Positions 25,968 through 32,486 of a stretch of DNA of 64,000 nt are shown here, one piece after another. The DNA lies in assembly GCA_902560705.1 (NCBI GenBank), contig CACEMW010000003.1, positions 6,125 to 70,124 of the forward strand, in the 5' to 3' direction. The notes under the pieces are model-generated. The model saw only the letters and a program-made list of their open reading frames with translations, was not told where the DNA came from and ran no database searches. The position numbers and the translations under genes were made by a program. The DNA is from an uncultured Verrucomicrobiota bacterium. GTDB taxonomy: Bacteria > Verrucomicrobiota > Verrucomicrobiia > Limisphaerales > AAA164-E04. Within the stretch, counting starts at the first letter, position 1. Each line of letters starts with the position of its first letter.

Positions 25968-26273
25968 CTATTTCTCCGGTTCCCCTTTGGGTGATGTCGC
26001 GTTGGTTCCCACCGACTCATGGGCATCGAGGGGATCCTCTGCCATACCGAAACAAACAAAAAGAACGATGGCGACGTTGGATCCCAGCCATGGGACTGCT
26101 ATTCCCCAGAAAACCCAGGATGGGAAGCCCAGAACCATCTTGAGCGTTTCTTCGGGAGCTTGTTGATAGCCTAGTAAATAGCAGGGGATCATAACCCACA
26201 GGGCAAAACAGGCCCAGAGGAGGAGGATGCCCCAGGTTTCCTTCTTGGTGTTTTCATAGACGGAGTGATTCAT
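25968..26273 (-). CDS. Small two-TM protein, YhdT/DUF997-like
   Basis: MNHSVYENTKKETWGILLLWACFALWVMIPCYLLGY... Its position directly upstream of an SSS transporter mirrors yhdT-panF. The start at 26273 makes an ATGA overlap with the upstream gene. Confidence 0.55.
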   Translation of the reverse strand: MNHSVYENTKKETWGILLLWACFALWVMIPCYLLGYQQAPEETLKMVLGFPSWVFWGIAVPWLGSNVAIVLFVCFGMAEDPLDAHESVGTNATSPKGEPEK

Positions 26274-26776
26274 TCTGCTGTCTGGGCTTGAAGCTTGATG
26301 ATGTTGAAGGATCCCGGGTACTTCCAAACGTCTCCCTGACTCGCTTTGGCGGCGCCAATCAAAGGGTACACAAGAGAAAGCCCTGCCAGTAAAATGAGCA
26401 AGGGCCAACCGATCAGAATAAAGCTCAATAAAAAGAAGATCACCCCATAGATCAGCTCACTTAAAACCCAGTTCAGCACGATGGTTCCATGAGCATCAAT
26501 TTTAGGTGAAAGATCTTTTTTCAAGAACCAGATCGCCACGGGGATGATCCATCCCAGGACTGGAAGCAAGTATCCACAAAGTTGTGAGAGATGGATGAAC
26601 ATCCCCCAGATGTTGGCATCCGCCTTGACTGGCTCTAGAAGGTGATCGTAGTTTGCTTTGGCCTGGTTTTGTCCTTCAAAGAGAGATTGCTTGGCCCGCT
26701 CGTATTCGCTCTGGGTGATCAGCCCTTCCCGTCGCAGGCGTCCCAGCTTTTCCATTTCATCGGCTAGACTGTTCAT
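26270..26776 (-). CDS. SHOCT domain + DUF4870-like membrane protein
   Basis: N-terminal MEKLGRLRREGLITQSEYERAKQSLF (SHOCT). Then IHLSQLCGYLLPVLGWIIPVAIWFLKKDLSPKIDAHGTIVLNW (DUF4870-type). Confidence 0.6.
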   Translation of the reverse strand: MNSLADEMEKLGRLRREGLITQSEYERAKQSLFEGQNQAKANYDHLLEPVKADANIWGMFIHLSQLCGYLLPVLGWIIPVAIWFLKKDLSPKIDAHGTIVLNWVLSELIYGVIFFLLSFILIGWPLLILLAGLSLVYPLIGAAKASQGDVWKYPGSFNIIKLQAQTAE

Positions 26777-27898: not shown

Positions 27899-29224
27899 TT
27901 AGCCCCTCCAGTAAGAGGATTGTGGTCCCACCTGATAAGGGATGTTGAGTTCGGGGGTGTTCAAGGCAACCTCCCCGCGATAGAGCGATTCGACGGCAAA
28001 AAGGGTGATCCCTGAAGTCAGCAGGGTGCGCTCAGGTGGATAGGTCGCATGTCCAAGGGCGATGGTTTCTTCAATGCGCCGGGAAAGGGGGTTGAAAAAG
28101 TCGGCTGTGGTGGTGTGGGCCGGAGGCATGGGCAAATGCATCAGACAGGAGAGGATGCTGCCGTCGGCGCGCATACCGGCATAAGTGAAGTCCTGCACCA
28201 GTCCATTGAGCATGAAAAGTGTGGTCCGAAAGCCATCCTGATGTTCGATCCAGTAAGCCACCGGATTCGGACATGCTTCCTGAATCCAGTCTGCGCTGGG
28301 AGGGCGCCAAGGACCACCGGAAGGAGGGCGGCATTGGTGGCTGCGATTCAGCGCGGCGATAAGAAGTTGTTCGGTCGTCGTGCGCGATGCCAACTGGTCC
28401 CATATCTTCCGACCGCGCATGGCGTGTACCGATCGGACTCCCGCTTCACCTCCATGACGTCGTTCCGACATGCATTGAGCGGTTTCCAGTCCGTGAATGT
28501 CATATGAATCGACCCCTCCGTAGCAAACGCAGACGCTTTCCTTCAGATCGCTGTTCCACGGCATGTCGATGGAGGGAATACGCCAGGTGACCGGCAGGGA
28601 TGATCCTGCCAAGAGAGGAAAGCCCAGCCGGTAGCTGTCTTCCACCATTTTCACGCATTCCTCCCAGCGCGTTGAGTAGTGCTTGTCGTTGAAGACAGGC
28701 ACGGCTCGCCCGCTTCTCTCGAACACCTCCACCATCTCTTTGAAGAAACGATAGCGAGGGTATTGTTTTTGCCCCTTGGCGTTGGTGGGGTATTGCCCAT
28801 GTTCGGCAATGATGATCACCCCGTCGACATCGAGTTGATCCGTTCCCCGGGTGAGCGCCTCGGCAATGCTTCCATAAATGGGTACTCCGTGGCGTCTTTC
28901 GCGGTCACGAGCCAAATCGTTTTCGGGGAACTGGTCGACGTAAAGCGAGACTAACTTGAGTTTGGGGAAATAGTGTTCTCCATGCCATCCGTAGCCCTCC
29001 AGCAGACGATCAATGAAGTGCTGGGCATGGCTGTGTCGCCTCACTTCCGTCGCCAGCAGGGCGACTTTTTTGGGAGCACCTTGGCTCATGGAGGCCCCCT
29101 GCAGGGTCGATGCCAACTGCAGGATTCCTGAACAGGCACCCAAGAGCGAAAGCTGCTCTAGGAAGGTTCTTCTGGAAACTTTCTCCTCCAAAGGTTTAGA
29201 GGGATATGGGGGTAATTGAATCAT
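27899..29224 (-). CDS. Tat-signal hypothetical protein (Gfo/Idh/MocA-like layout without a dinucleotide-binding motif)
   Basis: Twin-arginine signal VSRRTFLEQLSLLGACSGILQLAS. KKVALLATEV occupies the place of a GxGxxG motif. The probable start is MIQLPP at 29224. Confidence 0.6.
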   Translation of the reverse strand: MIQLPPYPSKPLEEKVSRRTFLEQLSLLGACSGILQLASTLQGASMSQGAPKKVALLATEVRRHSHAQHFIDRLLEGYGWHGEHYFPKLKLVSLYVDQFPENDLARDRERRHGVPIYGSIAEALTRGTDQLDVDGVIIIAEHGQYPTNAKGQKQYPRYRFFKEMVEVFERSGRAVPVFNDKHYSTRWEECVKMVEDSYRLGFPLLAGSSLPVTWRIPSIDMPWNSDLKESVCVCYGGVDSYDIHGLETAQCMSERRHGGEAGVRSVHAMRGRKIWDQLASRTTTEQLLIAALNRSHQCRPPSGGPWRPPSADWIQEACPNPVAYWIEHQDGFRTTLFMLNGLVQDFTYAGMRADGSILSCLMHLPMPPAHTTTADFFNPLSRRIEETIALGHATYPPERTLLTSGITLFAVESLYRGEVALNTPELNIPYQVGPQSSYWRG

Positions 29225-29369
29225 GATTACATTGTGGCGCTGGTTGAAATGTTCGCAATTGGGGCAGGGGTGCGTCAATGGGAAAGCAGGGGAGTTCGCC
29301 CACATGTATCGGTGATTCACGTTGACCGGGTCCTTTTCTCCCCGTAAAATTTAATAATCCCCAATAGCT

Positions 29370-30200
29370 ATGAAAGCAAAACCTTTCAACTCCTTGAAGG
29401 CTTGGTACTCGTCCCACATCTCATCCGATGCTCGAAAGGGCTTTACGCTGATTGAGTTGCTGGTGGTGATCGCCATCATTGCAATCCTGGCAGGCATGCT
29501 TCTTCCTGCCCTCAGCAAGGCCAAGGCGAAAGCCAATCAGACACTCTGTCTGAGCAACCAGAGGCAATGGGGTATTTCCATTCAGATGTATGCAGCTGAT
29601 CACAACAATCGCTTTCCAGACAATTCCCAAGGGCAGCACTTGAGCTGGATGGGTCCGTCCATGGCGGAGTTTTGGCGAAACTATCTGATGGAGTCCAAAA
29701 AGACAGAGGCGGAGAAGGACAAGTTTCACGTGCTCTTTTGCCCGACTGACAAATGGCATCGAGTGGCCGACTTGTGGAGAAACTCCGACCCCAATGCCCA
29801 CCTCAAACCTGTGCTGACGGGATACTTCTACCTGCCGGGTCGTACCGCTTCCAGTGCGGAGTACAATGTGAGTGGGGTGGAAGACTGGGTGAAACGTAAG
29901 CAACTTGGGGGGCGCTTCAAGAACGCTCCTATACTCTCGGATCGTCTCCAGGGAATCGGAAGCTGGAGCGTCAACAACAATAGTGGAAATGTAAATTGGT
30001 TTACCGAGAGTGACGGAAAATCCGTTCCTGCCGCGACCCATCGCAATCAGGACGGCTCGCCTCAGGGGGGGAACTTTCTTTTCGAAGACGGTCACGCCGA
30101 ATGGCACCGCTTTGATCTTCAAAACGCTCGCCAAACCATTGATCTGGGTGCTCGAGTTGGAAGCTGGCTTTGCTTCTACAAGATACCGATCCAGGAATAA
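29370..30200 (+). CDS. Prepilin-type N-terminal cleavage/methylation domain protein (PVC DUF1559-like pseudopilin)
   Basis: KGFTLIELLVVIAIIAILAGMLLPALSKAKAKA N-terminus. C-terminal GGNFLFEDGHAEW (H-X9-DG-like region). Confidence 0.85.
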   Translation: MKAKPFNSLKAWYSSHISSDARKGFTLIELLVVIAIIAILAGMLLPALSKAKAKANQTLCLSNQRQWGISIQMYAADHNNRFPDNSQGQHLSWMGPSMAEFWRNYLMESKKTEAEKDKFHVLFCPTDKWHRVADLWRNSDPNAHLKPVLTGYFYLPGRTASSAEYNVSGVEDWVKRKQLGGRFKNAPILSDRLQGIGSWSVNNNSGNVNWFTESDGKSVPAATHRNQDGSPQGGNFLFEDGHAEWHRFDLQNARQTIDLGARVGSWLCFYKIPIQE

Positions 30201-30244
30201 GGCCCTCGACTTGGTGGCTTAGCGTGCAGGGCTGTCTGTGGGTT

Positions 30245-30931
30245 TTACGGACCTTTCAATGAGGAGGAACGGTCATCTTCTTCAGAAGATTCCTTGCCAG
30301 CCTCAGACGAGGGCAGGGTTTTGAGGTTGAGGATCCCTGCCGGATTAGCAGCCATAGGGGAAGGCGTCGTGAAAAAAGAATAGTCCCTCAGAGGTTCCTT
30401 CCCCAACCATTTTTGTTCCACGAAATGGCTTTCATTGAGCCCAAAGGAGATGTCCGCGACTTGCTTGGGGTATTTGGGAAGGTATTCATGTGCGACCCGT
30501 CTGCCATTGGGGCGGATCAAAGCCAGGTATTCTCCTCCCGAGGAAAGTTTGAAATTGGTGTGGAGATCGCCGACCCAGTTGGTGCGGTTCTTTCCGGAGG
30601 CCCAGACCAGCAGGAAAGCCCCTGGTCTTAGGCGAATCGAGGGAAAGGGCCATTTTTTGTAATCCTTGAAGTCGTCGGTCAGCGACCAGCCTTCCAGCGA
30701 CTGAGCTTGGTCACTGGCATTGTAAATTTCAATCCAGTCCGAAAAATCGCCATCGCTGTCGGCGCGGATGGATTGGTTTTCTGCCAGAAATTCCGAAATG
30801 AGCAGATCTGGTTTTCCGGCGTAAAAGCGCAAAAGATCGGGAGAGAGAGTTGCGCCCAGCACCATGCATCCGATGAGAAGGGCGATGAATTGGCAGGAGG
30901 TGATACGGGTTTTGCTCTGGATGACTCTCAT
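30245..30931 (-). CDS. Lamin tail domain (LTD) protein, membrane anchored
   Basis: LISEFLAENQSIRADSDGDFSDWIEIYNASDQAQSLEGWSLTDD...PGAFLLVWASGK is a typical LTD. The C-terminus is short and low-complexity. Confidence 0.7.
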   Translation of the reverse strand: MRVIQSKTRITSCQFIALLIGCMVLGATLSPDLLRFYAGKPDLLISEFLAENQSIRADSDGDFSDWIEIYNASDQAQSLEGWSLTDDFKDYKKWPFPSIRLRPGAFLLVWASGKNRTNWVGDLHTNFKLSSGGEYLALIRPNGRRVAHEYLPKYPKQVADISFGLNESHFVEQKWLGKEPLRDYSFFTTPSPMAANPAGILNLKTLPSSEAGKESSEEDDRSSSLKGP

Positions 30932-30948
30932 GAACTGCCTTGTGTTTT

Positions 30949-31665
30949 CTAACCGTGGAGGAGCTCCACCCCACTGACATACTTGGACATGCGGGTGATA
31001 CGGAATGGGAAGAAATTCATCAAACGCTCGTCCAGTGTGGCAATGGATCCCTGGTATTTGAGTTCCACAATCACACTTTGGTGGAGTTTCCGGATGCGCT
31101 CAAAGCTATTGTCGAACCTCTCGATGGCGATGAAGCTCAGCTCTGAATCGATGGTGATCCGATAGTCTCCGTCGATGGACAGAAAATATTTTCTCCGATA
31201 GCGATTGCCGATTGTTGGGAGGATCACCGCCGCGTCCTCCTTGACTCGGTCTGGCAAGGGACAGGAATCCCAGTAAGTCTTGAGATCATGGTATCCAAAA
31301 CCAGGTTTCAGCGACAAGGCAGGCAGCTTGTAGGATTCCTTGGTGCCGACCATGCCCTGCTTGATCTTGTACTCGAGCGTGGTCTTGGAAGGGTTGTAGA
31401 GATAATCTCCATACCAACGGAGCCGGAGCTTGGTGCGTGCAGCCTGGCCTCCCAGGTTCTCATGGTAGTTGTCCAACTCCGGCGTATCGAAGTAGATGTT
31501 GTTGATGTATCGGGGTGGGAAGCACTCGCGAAAGAGACAAGGGGAGCGTCGTACCCACATTTCCACTTCGTGAAGGTTCAGATCTTGGATGTGGTATTTC
31601 CGCTCGAAACGATAGTCATCGGCCGAACGCTCTTTGACTGGCACCGAGGCTTGCATGTCAGGCAT
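30949..31665 (-). CDS. VTC domain protein (CYTH-like, polyphosphate polymerase-type fold)
   Basis: YRFERKYHI near the N-terminus, RLRWYGD, and VIVELKY late in the sequence. These are the hallmarks of bacterial VTC-domain proteins. Confidence 0.7.
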   Translation of the reverse strand: MPDMQASVPVKERSADDYRFERKYHIQDLNLHEVEMWVRRSPCLFRECFPPRYINNIYFDTPELDNYHENLGGQAARTKLRLRWYGDYLYNPSKTTLEYKIKQGMVGTKESYKLPALSLKPGFGYHDLKTYWDSCPLPDRVKEDAAVILPTIGNRYRRKYFLSIDGDYRITIDSELSFIAIERFDNSFERIRKLHQSVIVELKYQGSIATLDERLMNFFPFRITRMSKYVSGVELLHG

Positions 31666-31670
31666 GGGCT

Positions 31671-32354
31671 CTAGCTACCGATGCCTCGATCGTCAATGAG
31701 GCTGATCTTCAAGTTAGGATGGAGTTCTTTCAGAGACTGACGGCAATTTTCAATGTGAGCCATGTCGCGAAACTGCATCTGAAAGGATGCCTCAAAGAGC
31801 TCTCCGGTTTCGTCGAGTCGACGCAGTCGATAGTCTCCGGTTTGTTTGGCCAGTAAGTCCGTGATGGACGATAAGAGATTGGGGTCGGATTGATCGCCAG
31901 AGAGGGTGAGATAGAGATTGGGAGATGCCTTGTCAGAGCGGGTGATGTGCCGCAGCCACAGGATGGCCACAATGACACCAAAGGCAACCAGGGTGATCAC
32001 TGCTTGCTGCGACCCCATACCCAGACCGATGGCGATGGCAAAAAACAAGTAGCTCAATTCCTCTGGCTCCTTGATGGCAGCTCGAAACCGGATGATGGAG
32101 AGTGCGCCTACCAGCCCGAGGGACAAGGCAACGGAAGATTTGACAATGGTGATGATGAGCATGGTGGTCATGCTCAAAATCATGAAATTCCGACCAAACA
32201 TTTCCCGATTGGAGAGCACGTTGCCAAAATGTAGGTAAGCCTTGGCCAGCAGGTAGCTCAGAAGAGCTGCCAGGAGGAAATGAATCACAAACCAAAGGAT
32301 GTCAATCTCGGCATTCTGGGCAGCAAAAAAATTCAGTAGGGATTTTGAATCCAT
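31671..32354 (-). CDS. DUF4956 membrane protein
   Basis: LSLGLVGALSIIRFRAAIKEPEELSYLFFAIAIGLGMG core plus a soluble C-terminal domain. It is the usual partner of bacterial VTC-domain genes. Confidence 0.7.
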   Translation of the reverse strand: MDSKSLLNFFAAQNAEIDILWFVIHFLLAALLSYLLAKAYLHFGNVLSNREMFGRNFMILSMTTMLIITIVKSSVALSLGLVGALSIIRFRAAIKEPEELSYLFFAIAIGLGMGSQQAVITLVAFGVIVAILWLRHITRSDKASPNLYLTLSGDQSDPNLLSSITDLLAKQTGDYRLRRLDETGELFEASFQMQFRDMAHIENCRQSLKELHPNLKISLIDDRGIGS

Positions 32355-32486
32355 GACTTATCGAACTTGTTAGGACAATGAATGTGAAAGAAACGTTACA
32401 CGGACCTTGAAACCAACGCAATATTTTGCCATGTCCTGACTTAATGAATGCCTTTCCTCTCTGGGTGACCTTGCGCGTTTCCGACC

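Follow-up and report, generated by a model that had tools for sequence, protein, structure and literature searches.

Bacterial polyphosphate (polyP) synthesis is usually attributed to PPK1 and PPK2, and the locus described here raises the question of whether some bacteria also encode a polymerase of the type known from Vtc4 of the yeast VTC complex, and whether such an enzyme works together with a membrane protein and the cell envelope. The locus belongs to an uncultured marine Verrucomicrobiota bacterium and lies within a stretch of 64,000 nucleotides that was analyzed as a whole and is referred to below as the window. It consists of three genes on the minus strand: the first (31671..32354, an ORF of 227 aa) codes for a DUF4956 membrane protein, the second (30949..31665, 238 aa) for a VTC-domain protein, and the third (30245..30931, 228 aa) for a protein with a lamin-tail domain (LTD). 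The gap between the first two is 5 nt (31666-31670), and that between the last two is 17 nt (30932-30948).

These ORF coordinates agree with the first-pass annotation of this DNA, which had reported three minus-strand genes with the same gaps; the peptides it had quoted, i.e., GALSIIRFRAAIKEPEEL, YRFERKYHI, and VIVELKY, are all present in the ORF translations, and the family identities it had given are borne out by HMM matches above the cut-offs of PF16316, PF09359, and PF00932. NCBIfam holds a name for none of the three proteins. As for the interpretation built on these genes, a polymerase plus a channel, it is partly supported as a whole. The HMM matches, the residues, the gene pairing, and the topology all speak for a polymerase with a membrane partner, a channel role is one that DUF4956 may have, and the fact that the LTD protein is a truncated LTD-CotH protein had been overlooked.

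Upstream of the DUF4956 gene, and on the same strand, is a gene for an SDF-family transporter, and the 132 nt between the two (32355..32486, minus strand) are the likely site of the operon promoter. A sigma-70 consensus scan found no minus-strand promoter-like site in this interval, and the promoter and terminator scan of the window returned site counts that are not above those of shuffled sequences. The transporter was considered as a fourth conserved member of the operon and was ruled out, as its synteny does not extend beyond the closest clade (L001-L005 and L007). On the other side of the operon, a convergent gap of 44 nt (30201..30244) separates the stop of the LTD gene from that of a pilin-like gene on the plus strand, and within it there is a stem-loop at 30213-30236 with a terminator-like call on the plus strand. 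No pel gene was seen among the near neighbors checked, namely the SDF transporter and the pilin-like gene. The Pit-type (PHO4) gene of the window, at about 344-1609, is approximately 29 kb away, in line with the earlier remark that pit is distant from the operon.

Contigs from RNA libraries, 90-99% alike, span the operon in 4/4 runs, and they bridge the VTC/DUF4956 junction in four runs and the LTD/VTC junction in two. These contigs are strandless, they cover the flanks and the convergent gene equally, and DNA carry-over is possible; no evidence that the three genes share a transcript can be drawn from this coverage.

Recurrence of the gene set and a proposed mechanism

The three-gene arrangement is confirmed as a genuine feature, and it is not due to chance because 74 of 80 related loci, spread over several phyla, have the DUF4956-VTC pairing as well. 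In all 74, DUF4956 is on the strand of VTC, and in 52 of them the two are within 150 nt of each other; five of the six loci without DUF4956 are cut contigs with less than 850 nt of upstream flank. The VTC enzyme with this membrane partner occurs in at least Verrucomicrobiota, Bacteroidota, Chloroflexota, Planctomycetota, and methanogenic archaea. Moreover, VTC and DUF4956 were detected in the same three of 14 control genomes, those of Bacteroides thetaiotaomicron, Corynebacterium glutamicum, and Methanosarcina acetivorans, which have all three families. One protein of 463 aa fuses DUF4956 and VTC, a singleton that could be a frameshift artefact.

Regarding the third position, CotH, already named as a possible neighbor in the first-pass annotation, is a frequent partner. 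It is Pfam-verified in 29 related loci, it lies between DUF4956 and VTC in 20 of the 22 loci in which these two are split, and an N-terminal hydrophobic anchor is present in 45 of 46 complete CotH-type partners. The genome under study has 18 matches to CotH domains, none of them in the operon of the window, and it also encodes both PPK1 and PPK2 elsewhere. In addition, on another contig of this genome (C50) and in a second genome (G045), VTC-DUF4956 is followed by genes for HlyD-type periplasmic adaptors, with any other inner-membrane component absent from these loci. The HlyD partner of contig C50 has one match in 150 other genomes of the phylum (E 1e-20), a number that is not a frequency estimate, and the locus of this match has the identical VTC-DUF4956-HlyD order.

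Our reading of these data, to which we give an even chance, is that the operon is a membrane-associated polyP module of the Vtc4 type, with VTC as the polymerase, DUF4956 for docking or translocation, and the LTD protein receiving the product. The cytoplasmic VTC protein would take the gamma-phosphate of ATP and extend a phosphate chain within its basic tunnel, as its sequence and its model suggest. DUF4956, probably as an oligomer, would dock the polymerase at the inner membrane and move the product into this membrane or through it, and the anchored LTD protein, from its place in the periplasm, would take over the product or retain it at the envelope. We infer the membrane coupling or export of the product, as well as its nature and fate.

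Several observations argue for this module. DUF4956 appears as an obligate partner of VTC, as judged from the related loci, the control genomes, and the one fusion; the anchored CotH-type partners sit outside; and the HlyD-type adaptors supply a context of export. To these are added the catalytic competence of VTC, seen in the nine Vtc4 residues, the tunnel fold, and the full-profile Pfam match, and the orientation and conservation of DUF4956, all of which are described in the following sections. Since PPK1 and PPK2 are encoded in the same genome, the module would not serve as redundant bulk storage.

The DUF4956 membrane protein

The DUF4956 protein matches PF16316 with an E value of 3.9e-17 (62.9 bits against a cut-off of 30.6). 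Its AlphaFold model has a pLDDT of 78.9, lowest (67-70) in the most conserved helices, and in it an amphipathic helix at the N-terminus is followed by five membrane helices and, at the C-terminus, by an ACT-like domain (residues ∼146-221) of the order beta-alpha-beta-beta-alpha-beta. An invariant loop, R89-F-R91...K95-E-P-E-E, is predicted to be on the cytoplasmic side. The core motif is invariant in an alignment of 29 sequences (A2), and the membrane core is near-invariant across phyla, a very strong conservation that argues for the module. One source gives some DUF4956 proteins the name "YhiD".

The orientation of the protein is suggested by its fusions. Among the matches listed, 87 of 120 long DUF4956 proteins carry a lectin-like domain (PF06439) at their N-terminus, and the six whose whole sequences were inspected carry a signal peptide, with no helix ahead of the DUF4956 core. 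Because of these fusions of signal peptide, lectin, and DUF4956, the predicted topology, from sequence and model, places the N-terminus outside and the ACT-like tail in the cytoplasm, and this outward orientation is a further argument for the module. Five helices alone cannot form a pore for polyP, and therefore an oligomer of DUF4956 must be assumed.

Other features weigh against the module. No similarity is detectable between DUF4956 and the DUF202 helices of the yeast VTC channel, the pLDDT is low precisely in the conserved helices, and MgtC is the only named resemblance. In fold comparisons of the C-terminal domain, generic ACT domains (Z 10-11) score above the C-domains of MgtC (7qa5, Z 8.8, and 2lqj, Z 8.7), the match of DUF4956 to MgtC PF02308 falls short of the threshold (11.7 bits, with the cut-off at 31.4, E 0.33), and no member of the MgtC family was above the cut-off in 21 related genomes. 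Fold searches returned no channel-like solved relative of the membrane part, the lists being filled by the ACT-like domain.

An alternative to be taken seriously, if unlikely, is that the polyP never leaves the cytoplasm. DUF4956 would then be an anchor, or an MgtC-like allosteric regulator sensing a small molecule, and the LTD and CotH proteins would be envelope proteins under shared regulation, with no flow of product to them. This account is favored by the ACT-type, ligand-binding fold of the C-terminal domain, as in MgtC, and by the fold-search lists just mentioned. It also draws on a preprint on Streptococcus intermedius (10.1101/2024.04.20.589940), the available text of which summarizes that members of the MgtC family work by binding other proteins and proposes that polyP may remain cytoplasmic. 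This proposal weighs against the module, as does the report, in the same preprint, of no clear phenotype in Pel assays upon deletion of the homologues. However, a purely cytoplasmic role leaves unexplained why the third partner is extracytoplasmic (in 45 of 46 cases), why exported lectin-like domains occur as fusions to DUF4956 (in 87 of the 120 long proteins listed), and why HlyD-type adaptors occur where no other inner-membrane component does. In addition, PPK1 and PPK2 already supply cytoplasmic polyP, and the near-invariant membrane core of DUF4956 exceeds what an anchor requires.

The polymerase and the LTD protein

The VTC protein matches PF09359 over profile positions 2-235 of 235 (E 1.2e-29, 104 bits, with the cut-off at 23). 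Because its 238 aa include no hydrophobic segment, it is placed in the cytoplasm. PF09359 is the only domain in the protein, with the SPX domain and the DUF202 helices absent, and its partner belongs to PF16316, not to PF02656. The AlphaFold model (pLDDT 87.1) has the fold of a Vtc4-like triphosphate tunnel, and the top 11 rows of a Foldseek search with this model are chains of Vtc4, Vtc2, and Vtc3, with E values from 4e-12 to 5e-11.

The catalytic set of the protein is composed of K23, R81, R83, K100, Y156, R158, E201, S227, and K228. In a HMMER alignment with the yeast chains, the first six are equivalent to K200, R264, R266, K281, Y359, and R361 of Vtc4. The C-terminal residues were mapped through a fungal Vtc4-like protein because direct mapping to yeast Vtc4 gave nothing usable: phmmer with residues 190-238 found no match, and a 25-sequence profile of the C-terminal part gave chance matches only (mucin, MANF). 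By hhalign to this fungal SPX-VTC-DUF202 protein, and by an alignment of Vtc2, the last three residues are equivalent to E426 (a yeast number inferred as position 424 plus two), S457, and K458. The fungal protein was the sole long VTC fusion, one match among 6483 candidates of 491-2000 aa; bacterial fusions were none among them, which is weak evidence, the sizes of 417-491 aa being outside this range.

The tunnel residues of Vtc4, on whose conservation the first-pass annotation had made its proposal depend, are all present, and the nine are invariant in 27/27 VTC sequences. According to the available text of a study on yeast (10.1101/2023.01.27.525886), these nine Vtc4 residues coordinate the triphosphate and Mn, and their mutation lowers polyP. 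The position of K228 is I or L in the inactive Vtc2 and Vtc3. From sequence and model, polyphosphate polymerase chemistry of the VTC protein is well supported in silico.

It is highly improbable, in our judgment, that the protein is a tunnel enzyme with different chemistry (for example, a tripolyphosphatase, an NTP phosphohydrolase, or a cyclase) and a name inherited from yeast. The tunnel superfamily does include hydrolases and cyclases, and the VTC model matches ygiF, an archaeal TTM, class IV cyclases, and thiamine triphosphatase at weaker scores; moreover, an assay of a bacterial VTC member was not found in the literature. Nevertheless, the best sequence and fold matches are to the VTC family proper, and the residues kept include the lysine that distinguishes active Vtc4 from inactive Vtc2 and Vtc3.

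The third protein matches PF00932 at residues 40-147 (E 2.4e-16, 60.5 bits against a cut-off of 34.3). Pfam gives LTD alone, and the CotH kinase domain PF08757 was not found in this gene. A single N-terminal hydrophobic segment, residues 13-29, agrees with the anchored LTD protein of the first-pass annotation; N-terminal anchoring is a reasonable assignment, and the protein probably faces the periplasm. A lipoprotein motif (LIGC, residues 19-22) was also considered and was ruled out, as the cysteine is not conserved in L002-L007.

The LTD protein aligns to the first ∼205 residues of LTD-CotH proteins of ∼730 aa (L009-L013), with 54 invariant columns, and its end coincides with the start of CHB_HEX_C in these homologues. 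Judged by these alignments, it is the anchored LTD-CHB_HEX_C-CotH protein that sister lineages encode at the same position, in a shortened form that lacks the kinase, and the conserved unit is therefore DUF4956-VTC-CotH. Since the kinase partner is absent, any kinase-linked role in the window would either be filled in trans or be missing altogether. It is hardly credible that the loss of the kinase left a non-functional or degenerating cassette in this lineage, as a third gene without the CHB_HEX_C and CotH parts of the sister lineages might suggest, because the short form is intact in seven loci (L001-L007, where VTC is 65-99% identical to that of the window) and has the 54 invariant columns in common with the long forms, every conserved residue is kept in VTC and DUF4956, and, as weak evidence, contigs from four RNA libraries span the operon.

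Significance and comparison with known systems

A Vtc4-type enzyme with intact catalytic residues and a conserved membrane partner would add a new route to polyP in bacteria, and a bacterial module of this type would bear on the origin of the eukaryotic VTC complex; a 2023 review of Vtc4 distribution (PMC10657179) treats Vtc4 as eukaryotic in its available text. The operon of the window is one local version of a gene set that is widespread in bacteria and that may assemble a phosphate polymer at the membrane and hand it to the envelope. ATP is absent outside the cell, and if the product leaves the cytoplasm, it offers a possible answer to how CotH, with its kinase fold, operates extracellularly without ATP; it would also link polyP to the loci of surface polysaccharides and biofilms.

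A bolder version of the module, doubtful when taken as a whole, is that of a third bacterial polyP route, of the Vtc4 type and made for export. VTC and an oligomer of DUF4956 would produce the polymer at the inner membrane and thread it outward, and the LTD domain would capture the emerging chain. For anchored CotH kinases, as well as for surface proteins and glycans, the exported polyP would be a phosphoryl donor independent of ATP, or else a modifier, either covalent or bound. The kinase-less LTD form of the window would then be a pared-down system that makes, exports, and holds the polymer, perhaps feeding the many CotH proteins that the rest of the genome encodes.

With the yeast VTC complex (Vtc4/Vtc3 or Vtc2/Vtc1; 3g3q, 7ytj, 8i6v), the window has in common the family of the catalytic domain, its fold, and the nine residues, and in both the polymerase gene comes with one for a membrane protein of its own. 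In yeast, the synthesis of polyP is coupled to its passage through a membrane channel, as described in the available text of two reports (PMC9911596; 10.1101/2023.01.27.525886). The polymerase of the window differs in being a separate soluble protein of 238 aa, with neither the SPX sensor nor the DUF202 helices, and its membrane partner comes from an unrelated family (DUF4956, with five helices and an ACT-like tail). Moreover, the product would be destined for the bacterial envelope and not for the vacuole, and the extracytoplasmic CotH and LTD partners have no counterpart in yeast.

Among bacteria, genes for cotH, a polyphosphate polymerase, and DUF4956 have been described as accessories to the pel operons of Gram-positive bacteria (Whitfield et al., 10.1101/768473), so that the gene set had already been noted in the literature, a point that the first-pass annotation had missed. 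The three families are contiguous in both cases, with LTD in place of the kinase in the window, whose third gene has no kinase and whose host is a Gram-negative verrucomicrobium. In S. intermedius, SIR_1592-1594 are the trio in its pel context, and the available text of the 2024 preprint (10.1101/2024.04.20.589940) calls their function uncharacterized, describes the pel-linked DUF4956 as MgtC-like, with four transmembrane segments along with an ACT domain at its C-terminus, and states that the trio was not found outside pel operons. In the loci compared here, the DUF4956-VTC-CotH trio is common outside pel operons. The NELoc-2 locus of Clostridium perfringens, as given in the available text of its report (PMC2879425), has two pairs of a ∼230-aa VTC gene and a ∼225-aa cytoplasmic-membrane protein adjoining CotH; the membrane partner is annotated there as tubulin/FtsZ, and, judged by size and location only, it may be DUF4956.

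The MgtC/SapB/YhiD family resembles DUF4956 in its layout, with several helices forming a small membrane domain ahead of a C-terminal domain of the ACT-like type, whereas the sequence match of DUF4956 to it is far under threshold. MgtC is a regulator and not a channel, and we know of no pairing of MgtC with a tunnel enzyme. Finally, PPK1 and PPK2 are the established polyphosphate kinases of bacteria and make the polymer from nucleoside triphosphate. The same polymer is expected from the VTC module, by a protein of unrelated fold, and because both kinases are in this genome, the module would be an addition to them and not their replacement.

Organization of the operon and features of its VTC protein

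The window carries three tightly spaced minus-strand genes, encoding a DUF4956 (PF16316) membrane protein of 227 aa (31671..32354), a VTC-domain (PF09359) protein of 238 aa (30949..31665), and a lamin-tail-domain (LTD, PF00932) protein of 228 aa (30245..30931). The first-pass annotation had reported spacers of 5 and 17 nt, with which these coordinates agree, and the peptides it cited are found in the ORF translations. Its family calls all lie above the Pfam cut-offs (DUF4956, E 3.9e-17, 62.9 bits against 30.6; VTC, over the full profile, E 1.2e-29, 104 bits against 23; LTD, E 2.4e-16, 60.5 bits against 34.3), and no NCBIfam model matches any of the three. The arrangement is confirmed as real and not due to chance.

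Regarding the surroundings, a gene for an SDF-family transporter lies 132 nt upstream on the same minus strand, and a plus-strand gene for a prepilin-type N-methylation protein with a C-terminal H-X9-DG motif (29370-30200) converges with the LTD gene 44 nt downstream of it, a synteny kept in four related loci (L003-L006). The nearest public relative, L001 from a Pedosphaera sp. MAG (Verrucomicrobiota), has a VTC protein 99% identical to that of the window. The PHO4/Pit transporter gene, at about 344-1609, is some 29 kb away, and no link to the operon is claimed, as had been stated from the start. The gene at 26270-26776 (minus), whose 168-aa product has SHOCT and DUF4870 domains, overlaps the end of a 370-aa ORF; Pfam gave no family for this ORF, nor for the 473-aa ORF that comes next at 27899-29320.

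A word-indexed search returned 166 VTC relatives among 332 candidates; the 120 among the matches listed all contain PF09359, measure 168-280 aa, and are named "polyphosphate polymerase domain-containing protein" or similar. An alignment of the window protein with 26 of these 120, picked for spread, has 35 invariant columns (n = 27), and the AlphaFold model derived from it is a beta-barrel tunnel (pLDDT 87.1), for which Foldseek ranks the yeast Vtc4, Vtc2, and Vtc3 tunnel domains first (E 4e-12 to 5e-11), ahead of other triphosphate-tunnel enzymes (E 2e-8 and weaker).

In yeast, K200, R264, R266, K281, Y359, R361, S457, and K458 are reported to bind the triphosphate and E426 the Mn ion; mutation of the eight triphosphate ligands lowers polyphosphate (polyP), and K458 is described as the only one that differs in the inactive Vtc2 and Vtc3, where I or L takes its place (10.1101/2023.01.27.525886). 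An inactive Vtc4 form in use is R264A/R266A/E426N (PMC9911596). HMMER alignments of the window protein with the yeast chains, numbered from the chain offsets, pair K23 with K200, R81 with R264, R83 with R266, K100 with K281, Y156 with Y359, and R158 with R361; they do not extend to the C-terminal strands. For these, a profile comparison with a fungal SPX-VTC-DUF202 protein sets VIVELKY against AVLEVKL and MSKYVSG against FSKYVHG, and an alignment with Vtc2 places the S-K of the window opposite S-I, from which E201, S227, and K228 are taken as counterparts of E426 (a number inferred as residue 424 of the yeast alignment plus two), S457, and K458. All nine ligand residues are kept in the window protein and are invariant in the 27 sequences, so the objection that the tunnel residues needed by a polymerase might be missing falls away, and polymerase competence, as judged from sequence and fold, holds.

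Partner genes in related loci and in the same genome

A degenerate pattern from this alignment, applied to one genome per species, gave 211 matches; confirmation left 202, and the top 80 of these were retained as loci, which are drawn from Verrucomicrobiota, Bacteroidota, Chloroflexota, Chlorobiota, Planctomycetota, a Bifidobacterium MAG, and two methanogens. The pairing proposed in the first-pass annotation is conserved: 74 of these best 80 of 202 loci have a DUF4956 homologue (phmmer with the window protein), always on the strand of the VTC gene, either within 150 nt of it (52 loci; 50 upstream, 2 downstream) or 710-3829 nt upstream (22 split loci). In five of the six remaining loci the available upstream flank is shorter than 850 nt, and L075 is the only one with a full flank in which phmmer found no DUF4956. 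VTC and DUF4956 both match in the same three of 14 control genomes, and CotH, a kinase-fold family, in those three and Bacillus subtilis. In addition, one 463-aa protein (P0124), retrieved in a search for long DUF4956 forms, joins DUF4956 and then VTC in a single chain; it may be a natural fusion or a frameshift artefact in a metagenome contig, the latter being possible because it is a singleton with its junction where the neighboring genes overlap in relatives.

The identity of the third gene changes with distance from the window. In L001-L007, whose VTC proteins are 65-99% identical to that of the window, it encodes an LTD-only protein of 195-224 aa, as in the window; in L009-L014 (49-56% identical), VTC is followed by a gene for an anchored protein of ~730 aa with the domain order LTD-CHB_HEX_C/Fn3_assoc-CotH (the L011 copy, interrupted by the contig end, has 522 aa). 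When five short and four long forms are aligned, 54 columns are invariant across the first ~205 residues, after which the short forms run out in variable tails, exactly at the point where CHB_HEX_C starts in the long ones. By this alignment, the LTD gene of the window is a stable version of the CotH partner that lacks the kinase; that it might be an independent kind of gene is ruled out by the same comparison.

CotH, whose presence in the neighborhood had also been put forward for checking, is a recurrent partner: phmmer with eight seeds finds a CotH-type protein in 51 of the best 80 of 202 loci, and profiles built from these matches in 58, a figure that over-counts kinases because the profiles take in non-kinase domains. 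Pfam added L038 as one further locus with such a partner, and it verified CotH domains in 29 loci among 87 neighbor ORFs checked. In 20 of the 22 split loci, a CotH protein of 852-906 aa, often with a beta-helix region, sits between DUF4956 and VTC. In loci where CotH was not detected, genes of envelope or glycan functions are frequent neighbors, namely Wzy_C, Wzz, GT2, polysaccharide lyase, MBOAT, and AlgX, together with a T9SS-tagged metallophosphoesterase and a PEP mutase with a cytidylyltransferase. Metallophosphoesterase genes lie in or beside some clusters (L022:6820-7944, L059:4737-5750, L066:4904-5998), one with a T9SS sorting tail, and hint at extracytoplasmic turnover of phosphoesters or polyP.

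The source genome of the window (2.75 Mb, 52% complete) contains three VTC/DUF4956 loci. Besides the window, contig C52 has a tightly packed minus-strand cluster (L098:2477-6381) of DUF4956 (229 aa), CotH/beta-helix (839 aa), and VTC (227 aa), downstream of a weak Wzy_C-like membrane protein of 581 aa; AMP-binding and short-chain dehydrogenase genes follow the cluster. Contig C50 has, on the plus strand (L099:12192-14856), VTC (296 aa), DUF4956 (290 aa), and an HlyD-type periplasmic adaptor (365 aa), an order repeated in one other genome of the phylum (L101), where a second HlyD-like gene follows. The source genome also has 18 CotH-domain matches, spread over many contigs and several of them within ORFs of 1200-2000 aa; for a bacterium that does not sporulate, this is an unusually large complement of exported kinase-fold proteins. 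PPK1 and a PPK2-type ORF occur once each, and no PPX was found in the contigs of this 52%-complete genome.

Membrane topology and proposed function

Across phyla, the membrane core of DUF4956 is nearly invariant (n = 29; ...ALSLGLVGALS-I/V-RFR-x-x-IKEPEEL...AIGLG-x-G), and a conserved patch is also present in its C-terminal domain. In the model (pLDDT 78.9), an amphipathic helix at the N-terminus precedes five long helices, and residues 146-221 form a beta-alpha-beta-beta-alpha-beta domain. The fold of this domain is matched by ACT domains (Z 10-11) and by MgtC C-terminal domains (7qa5, Z 8.8; 2lqj, Z 8.7); the MgtC Pfam model reaches only 11.7 bits. Positive charges, read from the sequence, fall in the loops after helices 1, 3, and 5. 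Moreover, 87 of the 120 long DUF4956 proteins listed (516 in all) have an N-terminal lectin-like PF06439 domain, and the six that were read run from signal peptide to lectin-like domain, acidic/proline linker, and core, with no helix between. Chloroflexota proteins of ~445-545 aa, with a signal peptide, PF06439 (3-keto-disaccharide hydrolase/lectin-like), and an acidic proline-rich linker, occur in L016, L021, L038, L041, L067, and L076.

The loop charges, the PF06439 fusions, and the order behind the signal peptide point to an N-out/C-in DUF4956, which would put the RFR..KEPEE loop and the ACT-like tail in the cytoplasm, on the same side as the VTC protein, in which no hydrophobic segment was found. 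The CotH-type third partners are predicted to lie outside the cytoplasm; a strong hydrophobic segment falls within the first 90 residues of 45 of 46 complete ORFs, the lone exception having an over-extended start.

It is well supported that the VTC protein of the window is a predicted cytoplasmic phosphotransferase of the Vtc4 type working with DUF4956. Its product would be received at the basic cytoplasmic loop by DUF4956, acting as an oligomer, which would move it into or across the membrane, where the outward-facing LTD protein (LTD-CotH in other loci) would take it up. Export is favored because nearly all third partners are extracytoplasmic, DUF4956 itself occurs fused to exported domains, no further inner-membrane component is encoded in the HlyD variants, and the genome has PPK1/PPK2 to make ordinary polyP. 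Against it stand the resemblance of DUF4956 to MgtC, which is a regulator, and the fold searches, which, in lists filled by the ACT-like domain, showed no solved channel-like relative. The deletions reported for Streptococcus intermedius, with no clear phenotype in Pel assays, also weigh against it (10.1101/2024.04.20.589940). The first-pass interpretation is partly supported, in its polymerase competence and conserved pairing; a channel is a role that DUF4956 may have.

Comparison with known systems

The gene set itself is already in print. Clostridium perfringens NELoc-2 has "VTC domain - tubulin/FtsZ" pairs next to CotH (PMC2879425), and Gram-positive pel operons are described with cotH, polyphosphate-polymerase, and DUF4956 accessory genes (10.1101/768473). 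SIR_1592-1594 of S. intermedius is the same set; the authors of that study note the catalytic residues, liken the DUF4956 protein, in which they describe an ACT domain, to MgtC, propose cytoplasmic polyP, and state that the trio was not found outside pel operons (10.1101/2024.04.20.589940). Within the papers covered, a full-text literature search found neither a biochemical study of a bacterial VTC-domain member nor a statement of the export idea for this set. A Vtc4-type polymerase with a bacterial membrane partner deserves bench work, its function being so far predicted. Unlike the known Vtc4-type polymerase, the enzyme of the window has a different, bacterial partner in the membrane, DUF4956; particular to the window is the kinase-less LTD partner, and to its genome the presence of three architectural variants side by side.
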